Positions 855-24,928 of a stretch of DNA of 64,000 bases are shown piece by piece. Positions within the stretch are counted from its first letter, which is position 1, and the number at the start of each line of letters is the position of its first letter. Source of the DNA: Escherichia coli (GTDB lineage: Bacteria > Pseudomonadota > Gammaproteobacteria > Enterobacterales > Enterobacteriaceae). A program made the position numbers and the translations under genes. The stretch lies in the NCBI RefSeq assembly GCF_016903815.1, contig NZ_CP069973.1; one strand, written 5' to 3'. A model generated the notes under the pieces. The model saw only the letters and a list, made by a program, of their open reading frames with translations, had not been told where the DNA came from and did not search any database.

Positions 855-2309
855 TTATTTTTCAATCGGATAGATAGTACCCGTATTCATAATGCCGTTA
901 GGATCGAACTGCTTTTTCAGACCTTCCAGCAACGTCCACGCGCTGCCGTGTTCCAGCTTGCTCCAGTGAACGCGATGTTTACCAATGCCGTGGTGGTGCA
1001 CCATCGAACCACCGAGGCGAATGGTTTCTTCGCAGATGATTTTGTTGAGCGGATTGTGGTACTTGTCGATTTCCTCTTCCGGCTTACAGTCAACAACGTT
1101 GTAGTCGTAAACGAAGTACATGTTGGTGCCGTTCTGGTAGCTGTGAGAGGAGTGACCGCCCAGCATGGTGATGTCGTCGGCGTGCGGGAACTCGGTACGA
1201 ATACGGTTAATAACGCTTTCGTAGATTTCGTGAATGCAGCTCCAGCAGCCGGACACTTCGGTGGTAAAGCCCATGTTGCCGGTTTTGAGGATCTGCACAC
1301 GTTCGGCAGCTACTTTATCCGGTCCCCAGTTCAGGTTGTTAAACCAGGTTTCGATCAGCTTGCTGTCCACTCGCTGGCATTGCGGGTAACGTGCCACGAT
1401 TTCAGCAATCCCTTCGCCCGTCGCCTTCGCAATGCGAGGGTTACCTTCAGCCATAAAGATCAGCACGCATTTTCCGTCAGCAAAATGGGTGAAGTGTTGG
1501 GTGCCATCTTCAGCGTCATACAAACGAGCGATCGACGGACGATACCCTTCCACCATGATTTCACGCAGGATGTTGAAGCCGGTTTTCATGTCTTCCAGGA
1601 TATAGCCGTAGAAGAGGTTGTTTTCCGGGGTGAACTTAAAGATTTTCACAGTTACTTCAGTGATATAGCACAATGCACCTTCGTTGCCGATGATGATGTG
1701 ACGAATGTCCGGGCCTGCCGCGCGGCGTGGTACGTTTTTAATGCGTGTTACGGTGCCATCAGCCAATACTGCTTCCAGACCAACGACCATATCTTCGATT
1801 GCGCCGTAGAGTGTGGAGAACTGCCCGATACTGCGGGTTGCTACCAGGCCGCCCATCTGCGCCAGCGGCTTTGACTGCGGAGAATGCCCCGTGGTGTAAC
1901 CTTTTTCACGCAACGCGTTTTCCAGCACTTCCAGCGGAACTCCGCATTGCGCCGTGGCCTGCATATTCTCAATATCAATATTAATGATTTGATTCATGGC
2001 AGAGCCGTCGAGCACCACCGAGTTTTCCACAACGGTTTCCAGCCCACCTTCGGTAGCGGAAGCACCGGTACGCGGCACACCGTTAATTTTGTGCGCATTC
2101 ATAAAATTCAGCACACGGGATACTTGTTCTGTGGAACCGAGTTTTACGACCGCTGCCGGAATCGGCAAAGTATAAATGCCATGAATATCCGGAAATTTGC
2201 GAAAACGGTCAATACTGTTCTTCTTTAATACTGTTTCATCGGTAATTACGCGATCTGCACCAACAATTTCCTTTAGCTGGTCGACAATCGCTGCGCGAGA
2301 TAAAGACAT
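855..2309 (-). CDS. ygcU: FAD-linked oxidoreductase
   Basis: 484-aa ORF; length and synteny match K-12 YgcU. Confidence 0.85.
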   Translation of the reverse strand: MSLSRAAIVDQLKEIVGADRVITDETVLKKNSIDRFRKFPDIHGIYTLPIPAAVVKLGSTEQVSRVLNFMNAHKINGVPRTGASATEGGLETVVENSVVLDGSAMNQIINIDIENMQATAQCGVPLEVLENALREKGYTTGHSPQSKPLAQMGGLVATRSIGQFSTLYGAIEDMVVGLEAVLADGTVTRIKNVPRRAAGPDIRHIIIGNEGALCYITEVTVKIFKFTPENNLFYGYILEDMKTGFNILREIMVEGYRPSIARLYDAEDGTQHFTHFADGKCVLIFMAEGNPRIAKATGEGIAEIVARYPQCQRVDSKLIETWFNNLNWGPDKVAAERVQILKTGNMGFTTEVSGCWSCIHEIYESVINRIRTEFPHADDITMLGGHSSHSYQNGTNMYFVYDYNVVDCKPEEEIDKYHNPLNKIICEETIRLGGSMVHHHGIGKHRVHWSKLEHGSAWTLLEGLKKQFDPNGIMNTGTIYPIEK

Positions 2310-2378
2310 AGTAATTCCTTCCTGATAATAAAAATGGAATAATCATTAATAAGAGAAAACAGAAACCACCGTTATGGA

Positions 2379-3164
2379 TTAGCGCACTAAATAACCACCA
2401 TCAACCACTAATAAATGTCCGTTGACATAATTCGATGCCGGACTTGCGAGGAATACGGCTGCGCCCATTAAATCCTGAGTATCGCCCCAACGGTTTGCCG
2501 GAATATGATCAAGAACGCGCTGATTGGTTTCTGGATTACTGCGTGTCGCCAGCGTAATATCTGTTGCATAATAGCCAGGGGCAATACCATTTACCTGAAT
2601 ATTATATTGACCTAGTTCATCACAGTAAGCTTTGGTGAATCCGGCAAGAGCATGTTTAGTGGCAGAATATGCAGGTGACCATTGTCCACCTAAGTAAGAG
2701 AATAATGAACAGATATTAATGATTTTACCGCTTTTCTGCGGGATCATAATTTTTGCAGCTTCATAGCTTAACTCGAATGCGGCGGTCAGGTTCACATCAA
2801 TCATCGGGTCCCAGTCGGCACGACCGAAGTCCAGCACCTTATTCAGCTTACAAATACCGGCATTGTTAATCAGAATATCGACGGTACCGAAACGTTCGCA
2901 ACAGGCGGCGATTATCTTCTGCGGCGCTCCTTCTGCGGTGATATCCACCTGCATGAAGTCCACCTCAACACCCTGTTTTTCAATCATTTCCTTTGTTTCG
3001 CCGTTATCTTTAACGAAGCTTGGAATAAAGATATTTGCGCCTGCTTTGGCCAGCGCCATGGCAAATGCCTGGCCTAAACCGCTATTCCCGCCGGTAACAA
3101 TTGCGGTTTTACCTTTCAGGGAGAAAAAATCCATTGAGAGCGCATTGAGAGATTCGATTGACAT
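2379..3164 (-). CDS. ygcW: short-chain dehydrogenase/reductase (SDR)
   Basis: ORF 2379..3239; TGxxxGxG Rossmann motif (TAIVTGGNSGLG); start set at MSIESL with a GGAG RBS, giving 261 aa. Confidence 0.8.
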   Translation of the reverse strand: MSIESLNALSMDFFSLKGKTAIVTGGNSGLGQAFAMALAKAGANIFIPSFVKDNGETKEMIEKQGVEVDFMQVDITAEGAPQKIIAACCERFGTVDILINNAGICKLNKVLDFGRADWDPMIDVNLTAAFELSYEAAKIMIPQKSGKIINICSLFSYLGGQWSPAYSATKHALAGFTKAYCDELGQYNIQVNGIAPGYYATDITLATRSNPETNQRVLDHIPANRWGDTQDLMGAAVFLASPASNYVNGHLLVVDGGYLVR

Positions 3165-20750: not shown

Positions 20751-20835
20751 AAAACCAATTAAATTCAATAAATTAAAAAGTATGTTGGCCTGATACGTAG
20801 CGCAACAGGCAATTTTGCGTTTGGTATCAGTCTCA

Positions 20836-20868
20836 AACCGGCTCCTGAAAGAGCCGGTTTTGGTTTTC
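20836..20868 (+). terminator. Hairpin plus T-rich tract between barA and gudD
   Basis: aaccggctc-ctgaaa-gagccggtt followed by ttggttttctg. Confidence 0.5.
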
Positions 20869-20872
20869 TGTC

Positions 20873-22213
20873 TTAACGCACCATGCACGGGCGCTTGTTA
20901 TCAAACGTCCAGCCAGGAATCAGATACTGCATTCCCATCGCATCGTCTCGCGCACCAAGCCCGTGTTTCTGATACAGCTCGTGGGCTTTCATCACCTGAT
21001 CCATATCGATTTCTACGCCCAATCCTGGTTTTTGCGGCACCTGTACCAGCCCGCCTTTGATCTCAAACGGTTCTTTGGTCAGACGCTGATTGCCTTCCTG
21101 CCAGATCCAGTGCGTATCAATAGCAGTAATTTTACCCGGTGCAGCAGCGGCTACATGGGTAAACATCGCCAGGGAAATATCGAAGTGGTTGTTAGAGTGT
21201 GAACCCCAGGTCAGGCCAAATTCATGGCACATTTGCGCCACACGTACCGAACCTTGCATCGTCCAGAAATGCGGATCCGCCAGCGGGATATCAACGGATT
21301 GTAACGAGAGCGTATGGCCCATCTGCCGCCAGTCGGTGGCGATCATATTGGTTGCGGTCGGCAGGCCAGTCGCGCGACGGAACTCCGCCATCACTTCACG
21401 CCCGGAGAAACCTTGCTCCGCACCACACGGATCTTCTGCATAAGCCAGCGAACCTTTCAGGTATTTACCGATTTTAATCGCTTCGTTCAGCGACCAGGCA
21501 CCGTTAGGATCGAGGGTAATACGCGCCTGTGGGAAGCGTTGCGCCAGTGCCACAATAGATTCTGCTTCTTCTTCCCCGGCCAGTACACCGCCCTTCAGTT
21601 TGAAATCGTTGAAGCCATATTTTTCATATGCCGCTTCCGCCAGGCGCACCACCGCATCCGGCGTCATCGCTTCTTCGTGACGCAGGCGATACCAGTCACA
21701 TTTATCATCCGGCTGGCTTTGATACGGCAGCGGTGTGGCTTTGCGATTACCGACGAAGAACAGATAACCGAGCATTTCGACTTCGCTACGCTGTTGACCA
21801 TCGCCCAGCAGCGATGCCACGTTAACCCCCAGATGCTGCCCCAGCAGATCCAGCATTGCCGCTTCTATCCCGGTAACTACATGAATAGTGGTCCGCAGGT
21901 CAAATGTCTGCAAACCGCGCCCACCGGCATCACGATCGGCAAATGTATTACGCACCAGCGTCAGAACGTTTTTGTATTCACCCAGCGTTTTACCCACCAC
22001 CAGCGGAATCGCATCTTCCAGCGTTTTACGGATTTTCTCGCCGCCGGGAATTTCCCCTACGCCAGTGTGACCAGAATTATCTTTGATAATCACAATATTA
22101 CGCGTGAAGAACGGTGCGTGTGCACCACTCAGATTCATCAGCATACTGTCATGGCCCGCCACCGGGATGACCTGCATTTCAGTAACAACAGGCGTCGTAA
22201 ATTGAGAACTCAT
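20873..22213 (-). CDS. gudD: glucarate dehydratase
   Basis: ORF 20873..22237; start set at [10 protein letters not shown] giving 446 aa; enolase-superfamily. Confidence 0.9.
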
Positions 22214-22233
22214 ATTTATGTCCTTTTTCAAAA

Positions 22234-23574
22234 TCAATGACGGCCGAAAACGGGACGTTTACGGTCAAAGGTCCAGCCGGGGATCAGGTACTGCATCGGG
22301 CCCGCGTCGTTACGCGCACCGCCAGGCAGACGTTTATAGGCCTCATGCGCCTTTTGTACCTGCTCCCAGTCCAGTTCCACGCCCAGACCGGGCGCATCAG
22401 GAACGGCAATTTTTCCGTTTTTAATCTCCAGCGGATTTTTGGTCAGGCGACAATCGCCCTCCTGCCAAATCCAGTGGGTATCGATAGCGGTAGGATTACC
22501 CGGTGCCGCCGCACCCACATGGGTAAACATCGCCAGAGAGATATCAAAGTGGTTATTGGAATGGCAGCCCCAGGTCAGCCCCCAGTCGTCGCAAAGCTGC
22601 GACACGCGGACTGCACCGGAAAGCGTCCAGAAGTGCGGATCGGCAAGTGGAATATCTACCGCATTGAGCATCACCGCATGGCCCATTTCGCGCCAGTTGG
22701 TGGCGATCATGTTAGTCGCGACGGGCAAGCCGGTCGCCCGTCGAAACTCCGCCATCACTTCACGTCCGGAGAAACCCTGTTCTGCGCCACATGGATCTTC
22801 GGCATAGGTGAGAACATCATTCAGCCCTTTGCACAGAGAAATAGCTTCATCAAGCAGCCATGCTCCGTTGGGATCAACGGTAATCCGCGCATCCGGGAAG
22901 CGTTTCTTCAATGCACGAACAGTGTCGATTTCTTGCTCGCCAGGTAACACGCCGCCCTTAAGTTTGAAATCTTTAAAGCCATAGCGATCCTGTGAAGCTT
23001 CCGCCAGACGCACAACGGCTTCGCTGTTCATCGCTTTCTGATGCCGCAATTGATACCACTCATGGTTGCCCGGCGTATTTTCCAGATAAGGAAGATCGGT
23101 TTTGGTCCGATCACCGATATAAAACAGATAACCGAGGACGGTAATAGCATCGCGTTGCTTGCCTGGCCCTAACAGTTCGCAGACCGGAACATTCAGCGCC
23201 TTACCTAGCAGGTCAAGCAAGGCGGCTTCCAGCGCCGCCACGGCATTAACGCGCAATTCAAAAGTCCAGGCACCTTTGCCGAAGGTATCAAAATCGGCTG
23301 CCTGATTACCTTTATGCACCTGCTGAACCACTTTATTCAGTCGTGCGATCTCCTGGCCCAACACCATCGGAATAGCATCGACCAGTGTTTGATAAATCAC
23401 CTCTCCGCCTGGCGCTTCACCAATGCCGGAATGTCCGGCATTATCGGTGAGTACCACGATATTGCGGGTGAAATATGCGTTATGTGCACCACCAATATTA
23501 AGCAACATGCTGTCATGCCCGGCCACCGGAATGACTTTCATATCAGTAATAACAGGACTGGATTGTGTCGTCAT
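22234..23574 (-). CDS. gudX: glucarate dehydratase-related protein (paralog of gudD)
   Basis: 446-aa ORF, clear paralogy to gudD across its length. Confidence 0.9.
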
Positions 23575-23575
23575 C

Positions 23576-24928
23576 TTATTGCCCCGCGACAGGTTTCAGC
23601 TCGATACGCTTGATATCGCCCACCAGCACCAGGTAGCTCAGCACCGCGATTAAGGCATGAACACCAACATAAATCAGCGCCCCATTAAACGAGCCAGTCG
23701 TGCCAACGATATAACCAATTGCGATTGGCGTGACGATGCCAGAAATGTTACCGAACATGTTGAACAGGCCACCGGAAAGACCGCTGATCTCTTTTGGCGC
23801 GGTATCTGCCATTACTGCCCAACCCAGCGCCCCGATGCCCTTACCGAAGAAGGCCAGCGCCATAAAACCGATGATCATCCACTCAACGTTGACGTAGTTG
23901 CAGAACACCATCACCATCGACAGCAACATGCCCATTACGATCGGTGTTTTACGCGCAATGTTCAGCGATCCCGTGCGGCGCATCAGCCAGTCGGAAATAA
24001 TCCCACCCAGCACACCGCCGATAAAACCGCAAACCGCCGGAACGGAAGCCACAAAGCCCGCTTTCAGAATCGACATCCCACGCGCCTGCACCAGATAAAC
24101 CGGAAACCAGGTAATGAAAAAGTAAGTCAGGGCGTTGATACAGTACTGACCGATATAAACGCCGATCATCATCCGTGACCCGAGCAGCTGTTTGATCTGC
24201 CCCCACTTCACGCTGAACGGCACTTTAACTTTGGTATTTTGCTGATCCATATTGATCAGCGCGCCACCCGCGGCGATGTACTCCAGCTCTTTCTGATTTA
24301 CACCCGGATGTTGATTTGGCTCGTGGATGACTTTCAACCAGATAAAGCTGATGACAATGCCCAGACCGCCCATAAAGAAGAAGACGTGTGACCAGCCCAC
24401 TTCATGCGTCAGCCAGCCCATAATCGGCGCGAAGATCACCGTTGCGAAGTATTGAGCGGAGTTAAAAATCGACACCGCCGTTCCCCTTTCCTGCGCCGGA
24501 AACCAGGCCGCAACAATGCGACTGTTGCCGGGGAAAGATGGCGCTTCAGCAAGCCCGACCAGGAAGCGCAGCGTAAACAGGGCAACGATAATGCCGAATC
24601 CACTAAAAATATCGACGAAGCCTTGCAGCAAGGTAAACATCGACCAGATAAAGATCGACCAGAAGTAGACGCGTTTTGAACCAAAACGATCCAGCAACCA
24701 ACCACCAGGGATCTGTCCGATAACATAAGCCCATGAGAAAGCAGAGAACACATAGCCCATTCCCACGGGATCAAGGCCGATATCTTTGGCCATTTCCGAA
24801 CCGGCAATAGAAAGCGTAGCGCGGTCGCCGTAGTTGAAGGATGTGACGATAAACAACATCACCACTATCCAGTAACGAGCATTTGTGCGTTTTTCCACAC
24901 TGCTCGCAGCCTGACTTAAAGAACTCAT
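23576..24928 (-). CDS. gudP: glucarate/galactarate MFS transporter
   Basis: 450-aa hydrophobic ORF; synteny. Confidence 0.9.

Follow-up and report, generated by a model that had tools for sequence, protein, structure and literature searches.

The locus described here raises the question why E. coli keeps, directly upstream of the gene for the D-glucarate dehydratase GudD, a second gene of the same ancestry, gudX (ygcY), and what its product does. Few members of its enzyme superfamily, a very well studied one, have been orphan proteins for as long as GudX. Both genes lie in a stretch of 64,000 nucleotides of E. coli DNA (assembly GCF_016903815.1, contig NZ_CP069973.1), referred to in the following as the window. 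The tandem pair itself is already known from textbook E. coli annotation, and 5,425 of 5,426 E. coli genomes carry it in their annotation; the comparisons add that gudX shows no decay and that it is almost always kept directly upstream of gudD. The comparative data narrow the options for GudX to a non-decaying protein that is no classical pseudoenzyme, that is nearly always coupled to GudD and whose differences from GudD are concentrated in one loop. The ancient duplicate GudX is probably a conserved partner subunit of GudD, a reading that we favor with some reserve. The features on which the argument draws are collected in Table 1.

Table 1. Features of the gud locus, with positions in the window.
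Feature	Position	Strand	Remarks
GC-rich hairpin, AAACCGGCTC-N6-GAGCCGGTTT	20835-20860	.	between convergent barA and gudD, from 13 nt past the gudD stop codon
gudD, D-glucarate dehydratase, 446 aa	20873-22213	-	enolase superfamily, GlucD subgroup; ORF, TIGR03247, MR_MLE_C, RefSeq
Antisense ORF, 117 aa	21090-21443	+	opposite gudD codons 257-374; by-product, not a gene
28-residue block identical in GudX, gudD codons 258-285	21359-21442	-	contains the Mg ligand E260; alignment
D-type capping-domain loop, gudD codons 88-114	21872-21952	-	around substrate-contact T103; clade-discriminating positions
gudX-gudD spacer, 20 nt, TTTTGAAAAAGGACATAAAT	22214-22233	-	read from the sequence
gudX (ygcY), glucarate dehydratase-related protein, 446 aa	22234-23574	-	upstream paralogue; ORF, Pfam, RefSeq
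Antisense ORF, 122 aa	22439-22807	+	opposite gudX codons 256-378; by-product, not a gene
28-residue block identical in GudD, gudX codons 257-284	22723-22806	-	alignment
X-type capping-domain loop, gudX codons 87-113	23236-23316	-	11-residue motif invariant in the X clade
gudP, MFS glucarate/galactarate transporter	23576-24928	-	TIGR00893 538.6 bits (cut-off 395), Pfam MFS_1, annotation

A preliminary description of this DNA had assigned both genes to the enolase superfamily, as homologues along their whole length that arose by a known duplication, and these statements hold. The Pfam domain MR_MLE_C is found in each protein (GudD E=6.6e-48, GudX E=5.3e-50, i.e., about 1e-48 to 1e-50), and RefSeq gene names as well as PDB entries exist for both. 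The pairwise protein alignment by BLASTP covers the full length with 282/448 identities (63%), 78% positives and 5 gap positions (569 bits, E=0), which is far beyond chance; the low identity that had been named as speaking against homology did not occur. MR_MLE_N was reported for GudX only, but GudD aligns to GudX end to end, and both have the two-domain architecture of the superfamily, an N-terminal capping domain followed by a C-terminal barrel. The mechanical ORF of gudD extends to a TTG at 22237, beyond its start codon, the ATG at 22213. GudD, the canonical D-glucarate dehydratase, scores 899.3 bits against the glucarate dehydratase equivalog TIGR03247, above the cut-off of 828.7 bits. GudX is the diverged copy; it reaches 748.2 bits, below that cut-off, and is therefore filed as a paralogue of the GlucD subgroup only, not as glucarate dehydratase, a name that implies efficient dehydration of D-glucarate or L-idarate to 5-keto-4-deoxy-D-glucarate. 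Together with the generic PGAP name under which RefSeq carries it, "enolase C-terminal domain-like protein," this agrees with the earlier remark that gudX has no proven activity.

The two genes are the second and third, and thus the last two, of an operon with the order gudP-gudX-gudD. The stop codon of gudP lies 1 nt ahead of the ATG of gudX, and the spacer between gudX and gudD carries an AAGGA Shine-Dalgarno-like motif 8 nt ahead of the gudD ATG. The order transporter, X, D is also found in Enterobacter, Erwinia, Mixta, Gallibacterium, Gilliamella, Entomomonas and Neisseria. Among the 8 genera sampled first, 7 have an X-D spacer of 12-47 nt, and Neisseria sp. has one of about 350 nt. The X-loop motif, searched as a DNA pattern, is present in at least 120 species-representative genomes, and in 83 of the 87 testable species genomes that carry it a D-type gene follows directly downstream of the X-type gene. 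The genes around such pairs encode glucarate and galactarate catabolism only. X-type genes that lack an adjoining D-type gene were found in Kushneria and Paludibacterium. The one in Kushneria adjoins a TRAP transporter and a 278-aa protein of the NAD-dependent epimerase/dehydratase family, which could be a uronate dehydrogenase.

At the DNA level gudD and gudX share 65.8% identity over 443 aligned codons, with 70, 82 and 45% at codon positions 1, 2 and 3, respectively, and their longest exact match is 20 nt. Within genomes, pS between X and D amounts to 0.50-0.66 (0.66 in E. coli), which is near saturation. A recent duplication or ongoing gene conversion was ruled out by the third-position identity of 45%, the 20-nt longest match and the nearly saturated pS. 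The 28-residue block that is identical in both proteins was considered as well: in windows of 30 codons, codon identity at identical residues ranges from 0.29 to 0.71 and does not peak in this conserved block, where only about half of the codons are identical, no more than elsewhere, and the block is therefore not a conversion tract. Across four enterobacterial genera, orthologues are 84-91% identical for X and 86-92% for D, while X and D are always 64-67% identical to each other. In an unrooted tree, 9 X and 10 D sequences fall into two clean clades with mirrored topology. Being adjacent, on the same strand, homologous over their full length and members of two reciprocally monophyletic clades, gudX and gudD qualify by sequence as tandem paralogues. 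Both go back to a single ancient tandem duplication of a glucarate dehydratase gene, an event older than the divergence of Enterobacterales, Pasteurellaceae and Orbaceae. That gudX is a horizontally acquired foreign GlucD is not supported, as no solved GlucD is nearer to it than the group of GudD and 1BQG (648-657 bits, against 541-637 bits for the other GlucDs). The uniformly greater distance of GudX from these other GlucDs would fit an acceleration on the X branch.

Even the antisense frames of the two genes had been said to translate into similar peptides, and indeed the peptides are 78% identical (E=6e-61). The two antisense ORFs face sense codons of about 256-378, where both genes are most conserved. 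In seven other genera the homologous antisense stretch carries 2-7 internal stops in most genes, which rules out that these ORFs are real genes and makes them a by-product of the DNA similarity.

Single in-register hybrid genes with the layout GudX(1-~260)::GudD(~261-445) have taken the place of the pair in Pantoea stewartii and in a lineage of Salmonella. In both the crossover site is the counterpart of the 28-residue identical block. The tandem copies thus act as a recombination substrate, and in-frame hybrids have formed at least twice. These hybrids can be regarded as natural domain-swap experiments.

Structures in the PDB cover GudD, GudX and, in one entry (4GYP), both proteins, under the names "glucarate dehydratase" and "glucarate dehydratase-related protein." GudX of E. 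coli K-12 (YgcY, GlucDRP; 4IL0 and 4GYP chain C) is about 98% identical to the window protein over 446 residues and occupies the same operon position. The window protein differs from the K-12 construct by seven substitutions (S48T, E57D, I75V, D142E, L163V, S325A and K379Q), none of which affects a catalytic or clade-discriminating position, and at residue 2, a difference that may come from cloning. The window thus stems from an E. coli other than K-12. The window GudD is essentially the same protein as the E. coli GudD/GlucD of 1EC7, 1EC8, 1EC9, 1ECQ, 1JCT, 1JDF, 3PWG and 3PWI (nearly identical to 1EC7 over the full length, 1030.6 bits) and is 63% identical to GudX, from which it differs by a capping loop of the D type and by S338 where GudX has a cysteine. 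A Pasteurellaceae GlucD-related protein (3N6H, 3N6J and 3PFR), presumably from Actinobacillus succinogenes, belongs to the X clade with the X-type loop and indel pattern. It is a nearer relative of GudX, against which it scores 789 bits and GudD 648 bits, with 87% identity to the Gallibacterium X protein and about 75% to E. coli GudX, from whose 12-residue stretch its conserved block PCIGENGYSGRE differs. Its entry 3PFR we take to be the structure of a GudX homologue with glucarate bound. The protein 1BQG, which we assume to be the biochemically characterised glucarate dehydratase (GlucD) of Pseudomonas putida, falls into the D clade (mean identity 73% to D, 64% to X) and has a D-type loop.

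The catalytic residues of GudX, whose inspection had been proposed in the preliminary description, are completely present. All 17 catalytic, metal-binding and substrate-binding residues are invariant in both clades (9 X and 10 D sequences), namely H32, T103, Y150, F152, K205, K207, D235, N237, E260, N289, D313, H339, S340, N341, D366, H368 and R422. These include the acid/base catalysts, i.e., the KxK motif (K205, K207) and the His-Asp dyad (H339, D313), as well as D235, E260 and N289, the Mg2+ ligands where barrel strands 3, 4 and 5 of GudD end, with roles as reported by Gulick and colleagues in 2000. The dN/dS ratios range from 0.038 to 0.109 in X and from 0.034 to 0.089 in D, so that purifying selection on GudX is as strong as on GudD and gudX, judged from these ratios, is not decaying. 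Pseudoenzymes typically lose catalytic residues. A pseudogene or a catalytically dead pseudoenzyme was ruled out, as these residues are all invariant and dN/dS remains at 0.04-0.11. A role of GudX as non-catalytic scaffold or regulator only could appeal to its reported lack of meaningful activity, to the sub-threshold equivalog score and to the co-crystal with GudD; given that K205, K207, D235, E260, N289, D313, H339 and the ligand contacts are unchanged in 9 of 9 X proteins, such a role is highly improbable.

The same conservation of catalytic and binding residues, together with the shared operon, would be expected if GudX were a redundant glucarate dehydratase isozyme of low efficiency, retained as a spare copy. 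Work of Hubbard and colleagues from 1998 reportedly found the activity of GudX toward glucarate and idarate strongly impaired, but not zero, and such weak turnover, like the glucarate presumably bound in 3PFR, would suit a spare copy. However, a spare copy is expected to drift or to be lost, whereas GudX and GudD have the same dN/dS, and X has 16 positions fixed in another state than D, in lineages as distant from each other as Neisseria and Gilliamella. In S. Typhi, functional GudD must be supplied for growth on glucarate (PMC11077982); the serovar, whose GudD carries substitutions, uses glucarate poorly despite an intact-looking ygcY. These growth data are a hint of non-redundancy, which presumes that this ygcY is functional. 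Degraded genes of the locus were reported for serovar Dublin (ygcY) and for Paratyphi A (gudT, ygcY, gudD and garD), and the published degradation in Salmonella occurs in host-adapted serovars, which also speaks against a spare copy; overall we regard a spare copy as improbable. Since glucarate use matters for the growth of Salmonella and E. coli in the inflamed or antibiotic-treated gut (PMC11077982), the state of the gud locus has some ecological relevance.

Of the 16 invariant positions that discriminate the clades, seven, together with both indels, are located within GudD residues 88-114, the capping-domain loop. Another is S338C, a serine-to-cysteine exchange in X beside the catalytic H339. 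In the enolase superfamily the capping loop shapes specificity. GudX might thus be an independent enzyme with an acid-sugar substrate of its own, whose place beside gudD would reflect a shared pathway or regulation only. Such an enzyme would be in line with the full catalytic kit under strong purifying selection, the clade-invariant remodelling of the loop and S338C, the TIGR03247 score below the cut-off and the stand-alone genes in Kushneria, there with the transporter as neighbor, and Paludibacterium. Against it, every X protein keeps all residues that contact glucarate in GudD, which points to a ligand that is identical or closely similar; the neighborhood with its genes for glucarate and galactarate catabolism only and the pairing with D in 83 of 87 genomes likewise speak against it. 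We therefore consider a substrate of its own rather unlikely, if less so than a spare copy.

That GudX instead acts as partner subunit of GudD is suggested by the tight position of gudX upstream of gudD, by the mirrored X and D trees and by 4GYP, which by chain count contains two GudX chains (C and D) and two GudD chains, the GudD number being calculated from sequence group u4846, which has 18 chains in 5 entries. The physiological enzyme of the glucarate pathway would then be a mixed GudX/GudD tetramer, and GudX would not be a redundant isozyme, nor a dead pseudoenzyme. Isolated GudX would be weakly active because its partner is missing or because the remodelled loop has a tuned specificity. 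Since any two neighboring genes of an operon should show linkage and mirrored trees, these discriminate weakly, and the co-crystal by itself does not prove a physiological complex. The lone X-type genes in Kushneria and Paludibacterium count against a partner subunit, and as X::D hybrids stand in for the pair, a separate partner is not always required. A Tn-seq study in Dickeya reported a gudX phenotype on galactarate, but polarity on the downstream gudD and garLRK offers a simpler explanation of it than a galactarate role of GudX/GudD. A further-reaching version of the partner-subunit reading is less likely: the glucarate dehydratase of enteric bacteria, Pasteurellaceae and Orbaceae might be an obligate GudX2-GudD2 enzyme in which the GudX loop adjusts activity or specificity, perhaps so that a further diacid sugar is accepted as well, and the hybrids might be single-chain solutions that place an X-type capping domain on a D-type half-barrel.

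The promoter scan gave no consensus sigma-70 promoter upstream of gudP on the minus strand, a result that is not informative; it fits the activator-dependent (CdaR) promoter described for Salmonella. At the other end of the operon, the hairpin between barA and gudD is a terminator-like match on the plus strand and has the same stem with a weak T tail on the minus strand; from these features it is probably a shared terminator of the two convergent genes.

The preliminary description had placed two adjacent genes of the enolase superfamily at 20873-23574, and two ORFs, gudD and its upstream paralogue gudX, match this interval exactly. The gene order of the surrounding region is that of E. coli. 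Only 1 nt separates the gudP stop from the gudX ATG, and the 20-nt gudX/gudD spacer includes an AAGGA motif. At this locus RefSeq names gudP, gudX ("enolase C-terminal domain-like protein"), gudD ("glucarate dehydratase") and barA; gudP encodes an MFS transporter (galactonate/glucarate type). The enolase-superfamily barrel domain was found in both paralogues, and for the NCBIfam glucarate-dehydratase equivalog TIGR03247 (cut-off 828.7 bits) GudD passes with 899.3 bits and GudX fails with 748.2 bits. A GC-rich hairpin, starting 13 nt past the gudD stop and carrying a strong T tail on the barA side only, may act as shared bidirectional terminator for barA and gudD. Several E. coli chromosomes, such as those of strains 7/2 and AR_0067, match a 4.4-kb segment over the locus at 100% identity, and this segment was found in 5,425 of 5,426 complete genomes of the species, with at least 80% query coverage in 5,408. 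Structures in the PDB exist for GudD (1EC7 and others), for GudX alone (4IL0) and for both proteins (4GYP, with two GudX chains and, by the chain count of the GudD sequence group, two GudD chains). Compared to K-12 GudX (4IL0), GudX of the window differs at seven positions and at residue 2, and the window therefore derives from a non-K-12 E. coli strain.

Features at the gud locus of the window and at homologous loci (X, GudX-like; D, GudD-like; X::D, hybrid of both)
Feature	Sequence	Coordinates	Strand	Remarks
barA, then gudD, gudX, gudP, yqcA, truC-like genes	window	17.9-27 kb	barA +, others -	
Hairpin	window	20835-20860		between convergent barA and gudD; symmetric, GC-rich, A and T runs on flanks
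gudD	window	20873-22213	-	446 aa, ATG at 22213
gudX	window	22234-23574	-	446-aa ORF
Shorter antisense ORFs	window	21090-21443; 22439-22807	+	
Longer antisense ORFs	window	21314-22240; 22237-22947	+	308 aa; 236 aa; facing gudD and gudX
X and D	Acerihabitans arboris, L014	3650-8238	divergent	~1.9 kb apart
X only, locally	Kushneria pakistanensis, L044	3670-8876		by TRAP transporter and TctC/TctB genes
X only, locally	Paludibacterium, L045			preceded by MFS transporter
Single 445-aa gene	Salmonella contig L001 (Logan ERR4338418)	1751-3088		in place of gudX-gudD pair
X::D hybrid	Pantoea stewartii subsp. stewartii CCUG 26359, L019	4086-5423	-	in register
gudX without stop at expected end	Salmonella enterica GCA_902109455.1, L005	4001-6704		

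The homology extends over the full length as had been claimed, with 282/448 identities (63%), 78% positives and 569 bits (E = 0) in the pairwise protein alignment and 65.8% identity over 443 aligned codons (70, 82 and 45% at codon positions 1, 2 and 3), far beyond chance. The duplication was also rightly called known, as both genes are annotated in E. coli and structures of both proteins are available. The finding is thus correct and not new, and the additions made here are descriptive; they concern how old the duplication is, selection on GudX, a loop signature, linkage statistics and natural hybrids.

Neither a recent duplication nor gene conversion is evident between gudX and gudD: the longest exact DNA match is 20 nt, and in a 28-residue block identical in both proteins about half of the codons are identical, as elsewhere in the gene. 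Within genomes, synonymous differences between X and D are near saturation (pS 0.50-0.66). In the genera Escherichia, Enterobacter, Erwinia and Mixta, identity is 84-91% among X orthologues, 86-92% among D orthologues and 64-67% in all X-D pairs. In an unrooted neighbour-joining tree of these four genera, Gallibacterium, Gilliamella, Entomomonas, Neisseria and three PDB sequences, X and D form two clean clades with mirrored branching, and the solved P. putida GlucD, 1BQG, groups with the D clade. The closest solved relatives of GudX are GudD and 1BQG (648-657 bits; other GlucDs 541-637 bits), and GudX is uniformly more distant than GudD from all solved GlucDs. Import of GudX as a foreign gene is disfavoured by these distances, which show the pattern expected if the duplication occurred within the lineage and the X branch then evolved faster.

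X-type proteins occur across Enterobacterales and also in Pasteurellaceae, Orbaceae, Entomomonas and Neisseria, and each of the first eight lineages inspected (E. coli of the window and seven other genera) has the order transporter, X, D. Species-representative genomes were scanned with a degenerate DNA pattern for an 11-residue X-only motif, which matches at least 120 species; among the matches listed, a D-type gene lies directly downstream of X in 83 of the 87 loci extending far enough, including Tolumonas and Neisseria perflava. The four exceptions are Acerihabitans, Kushneria, Paludibacterium and Pantoea stewartii. Acerihabitans arboris has the sole non-tandem layout among the examined loci carrying both genes. 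The Kushneria gene neighbours one for a 278-aa protein of the NAD-dependent epimerase/dehydratase family, which may be a uronate dehydrogenase, and this hints that X-type proteins may serve as the only dehydratase in an oxidative route of uronate breakdown. Further stand-alone X-type genes, judged locally, were observed at two Halomonadaceae loci (L122 and L129).

Purifying selection on GudX is as strong as on GudD (dN/dS over six species pairs 0.038-0.109 for X and 0.034-0.089 for D). The catalytic residues, whose inspection in GudX had been proposed, were checked with a list of 17 positions (GudD numbering) based on the structural literature on GlucD (Gulick et al. 2000). There, D235, E260 and N289 are reported as Mg ligands, the K205/K207 motif and the D313-H339 dyad as catalytic elements, and H32, T103, Y150, F152, N237, S340, N341, D366, H368 and R422 as ligand contacts. 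None of the 17 varies among 10 sequences of the D clade and 9 of the X clade. With these residues retained and purifying selection strong, GudX is not a copy in decay and not a classical pseudoenzyme; a non-catalytic scaffold is very improbable with the catalytic elements kept. Sixteen other positions are fixed in each clade and differ between X and D, among them S338C, which adjoins the catalytic H339. Seven of these, together with one insertion and one deletion of 2 residues each, fall in the capping-domain loop around T103, and a fixed, remodelled loop above the active site is the distinguishing trait of GudX. That GudX acts on a distinct substrate would fit such a loop and the stand-alone genes, and seems rather doubtful given the shared ligand contacts and the linkage to D.

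In the Salmonella contig L001, the hybrid gene sits between gudP and the glycerate-kinase gene. Its product (P0054, a cluster of 54 member sequences) is 93-100% identical to E. coli GudX in residues 1 to ~260 and 95-100% identical to GudD in residues ~261 to 445, fused in register. The DNA is ~100% Salmonella gudX up to a 23-nt stretch, GAAGATCCGTGCGGCGCGGAGCA, and 100% gudD thereafter; this stretch, the same in both Salmonella genes, marks the crossover site inside the conserved 28-residue block, where recombination of the two tandem copies has deleted the intervening DNA in frame. In P. stewartii, a hybrid built in the same way arose independently and is the sole GlucD-type gene of an otherwise intact glucarate/galactarate cluster, which suggests that such a hybrid can be tolerated or may be functional. 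The protein database further holds read-through GudX+GudD fusions of 650-690 aa (P0002, P0003), out-of-register X::D fusions (P0004, P0005 and P0009, the last on 23 E. coli contigs) and internal duplications (P0001, P0011), some of which may be assembly or sequencing artefacts. In S. enterica L005, the called 650-aa ORF continues from gudX through the first ~195 residues of GudD, and a 1-nt insertion splits gudD into two ORFs; the locus is either degraded or affected by a sequencing error.

Secure are an operon of a transporter and two tightly spaced, co-oriented paralogues, a canonical GudD, a conserved GudX with its complete residue set, a near-universal X-then-D pairing and a PDB entry that holds both proteins. 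With moderate confidence we infer that GudX would act in glucarate catabolism as subunit of a mixed tetramer with GudD, in which its loop might tune activity or specificity. The confidence is only moderate because stand-alone X genes and single hybrids speak against a general need for a separate partner. Published work lends limited support to this partner role. In S. Typhi, functional GudD is required for growth on glucarate although ygcY (gudX) looks intact, and the gud operon is under CdaR control (PMC11077982). A redundant weak isozyme, compatible with the retained residues, is unlikely in view of this requirement and of the selection on GudX. In host-adapted serovars ygcY is a pseudogene (S. 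Dublin) or a pseudogene or absent (S. Choleraesuis; PMC3282883), and it is degraded in Paratyphi A as well (PMC11077982). For Dickeya solani, a Tn-seq study lists gudP, gudX, gudD and garL as fitness genes during growth with galactarate; garD, present in the genome, is not named alongside them (PMC10202176). As garLRK follows gudX and gudD in the same orientation, polarity on garLRK probably explains the phenotype of these two genes.

The similarity of antisense peptides, noted in the preliminary description, is real: the shorter antisense ORFs are 78% identical, because they face the most conserved sense codons. As features they were rejected, since the homologous stretch has 2-7 internal stops in most genes of other genera, and they are by-products. 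Two longer antisense ORFs were also observed and, like the shorter pair, are presumably shadow ORFs.
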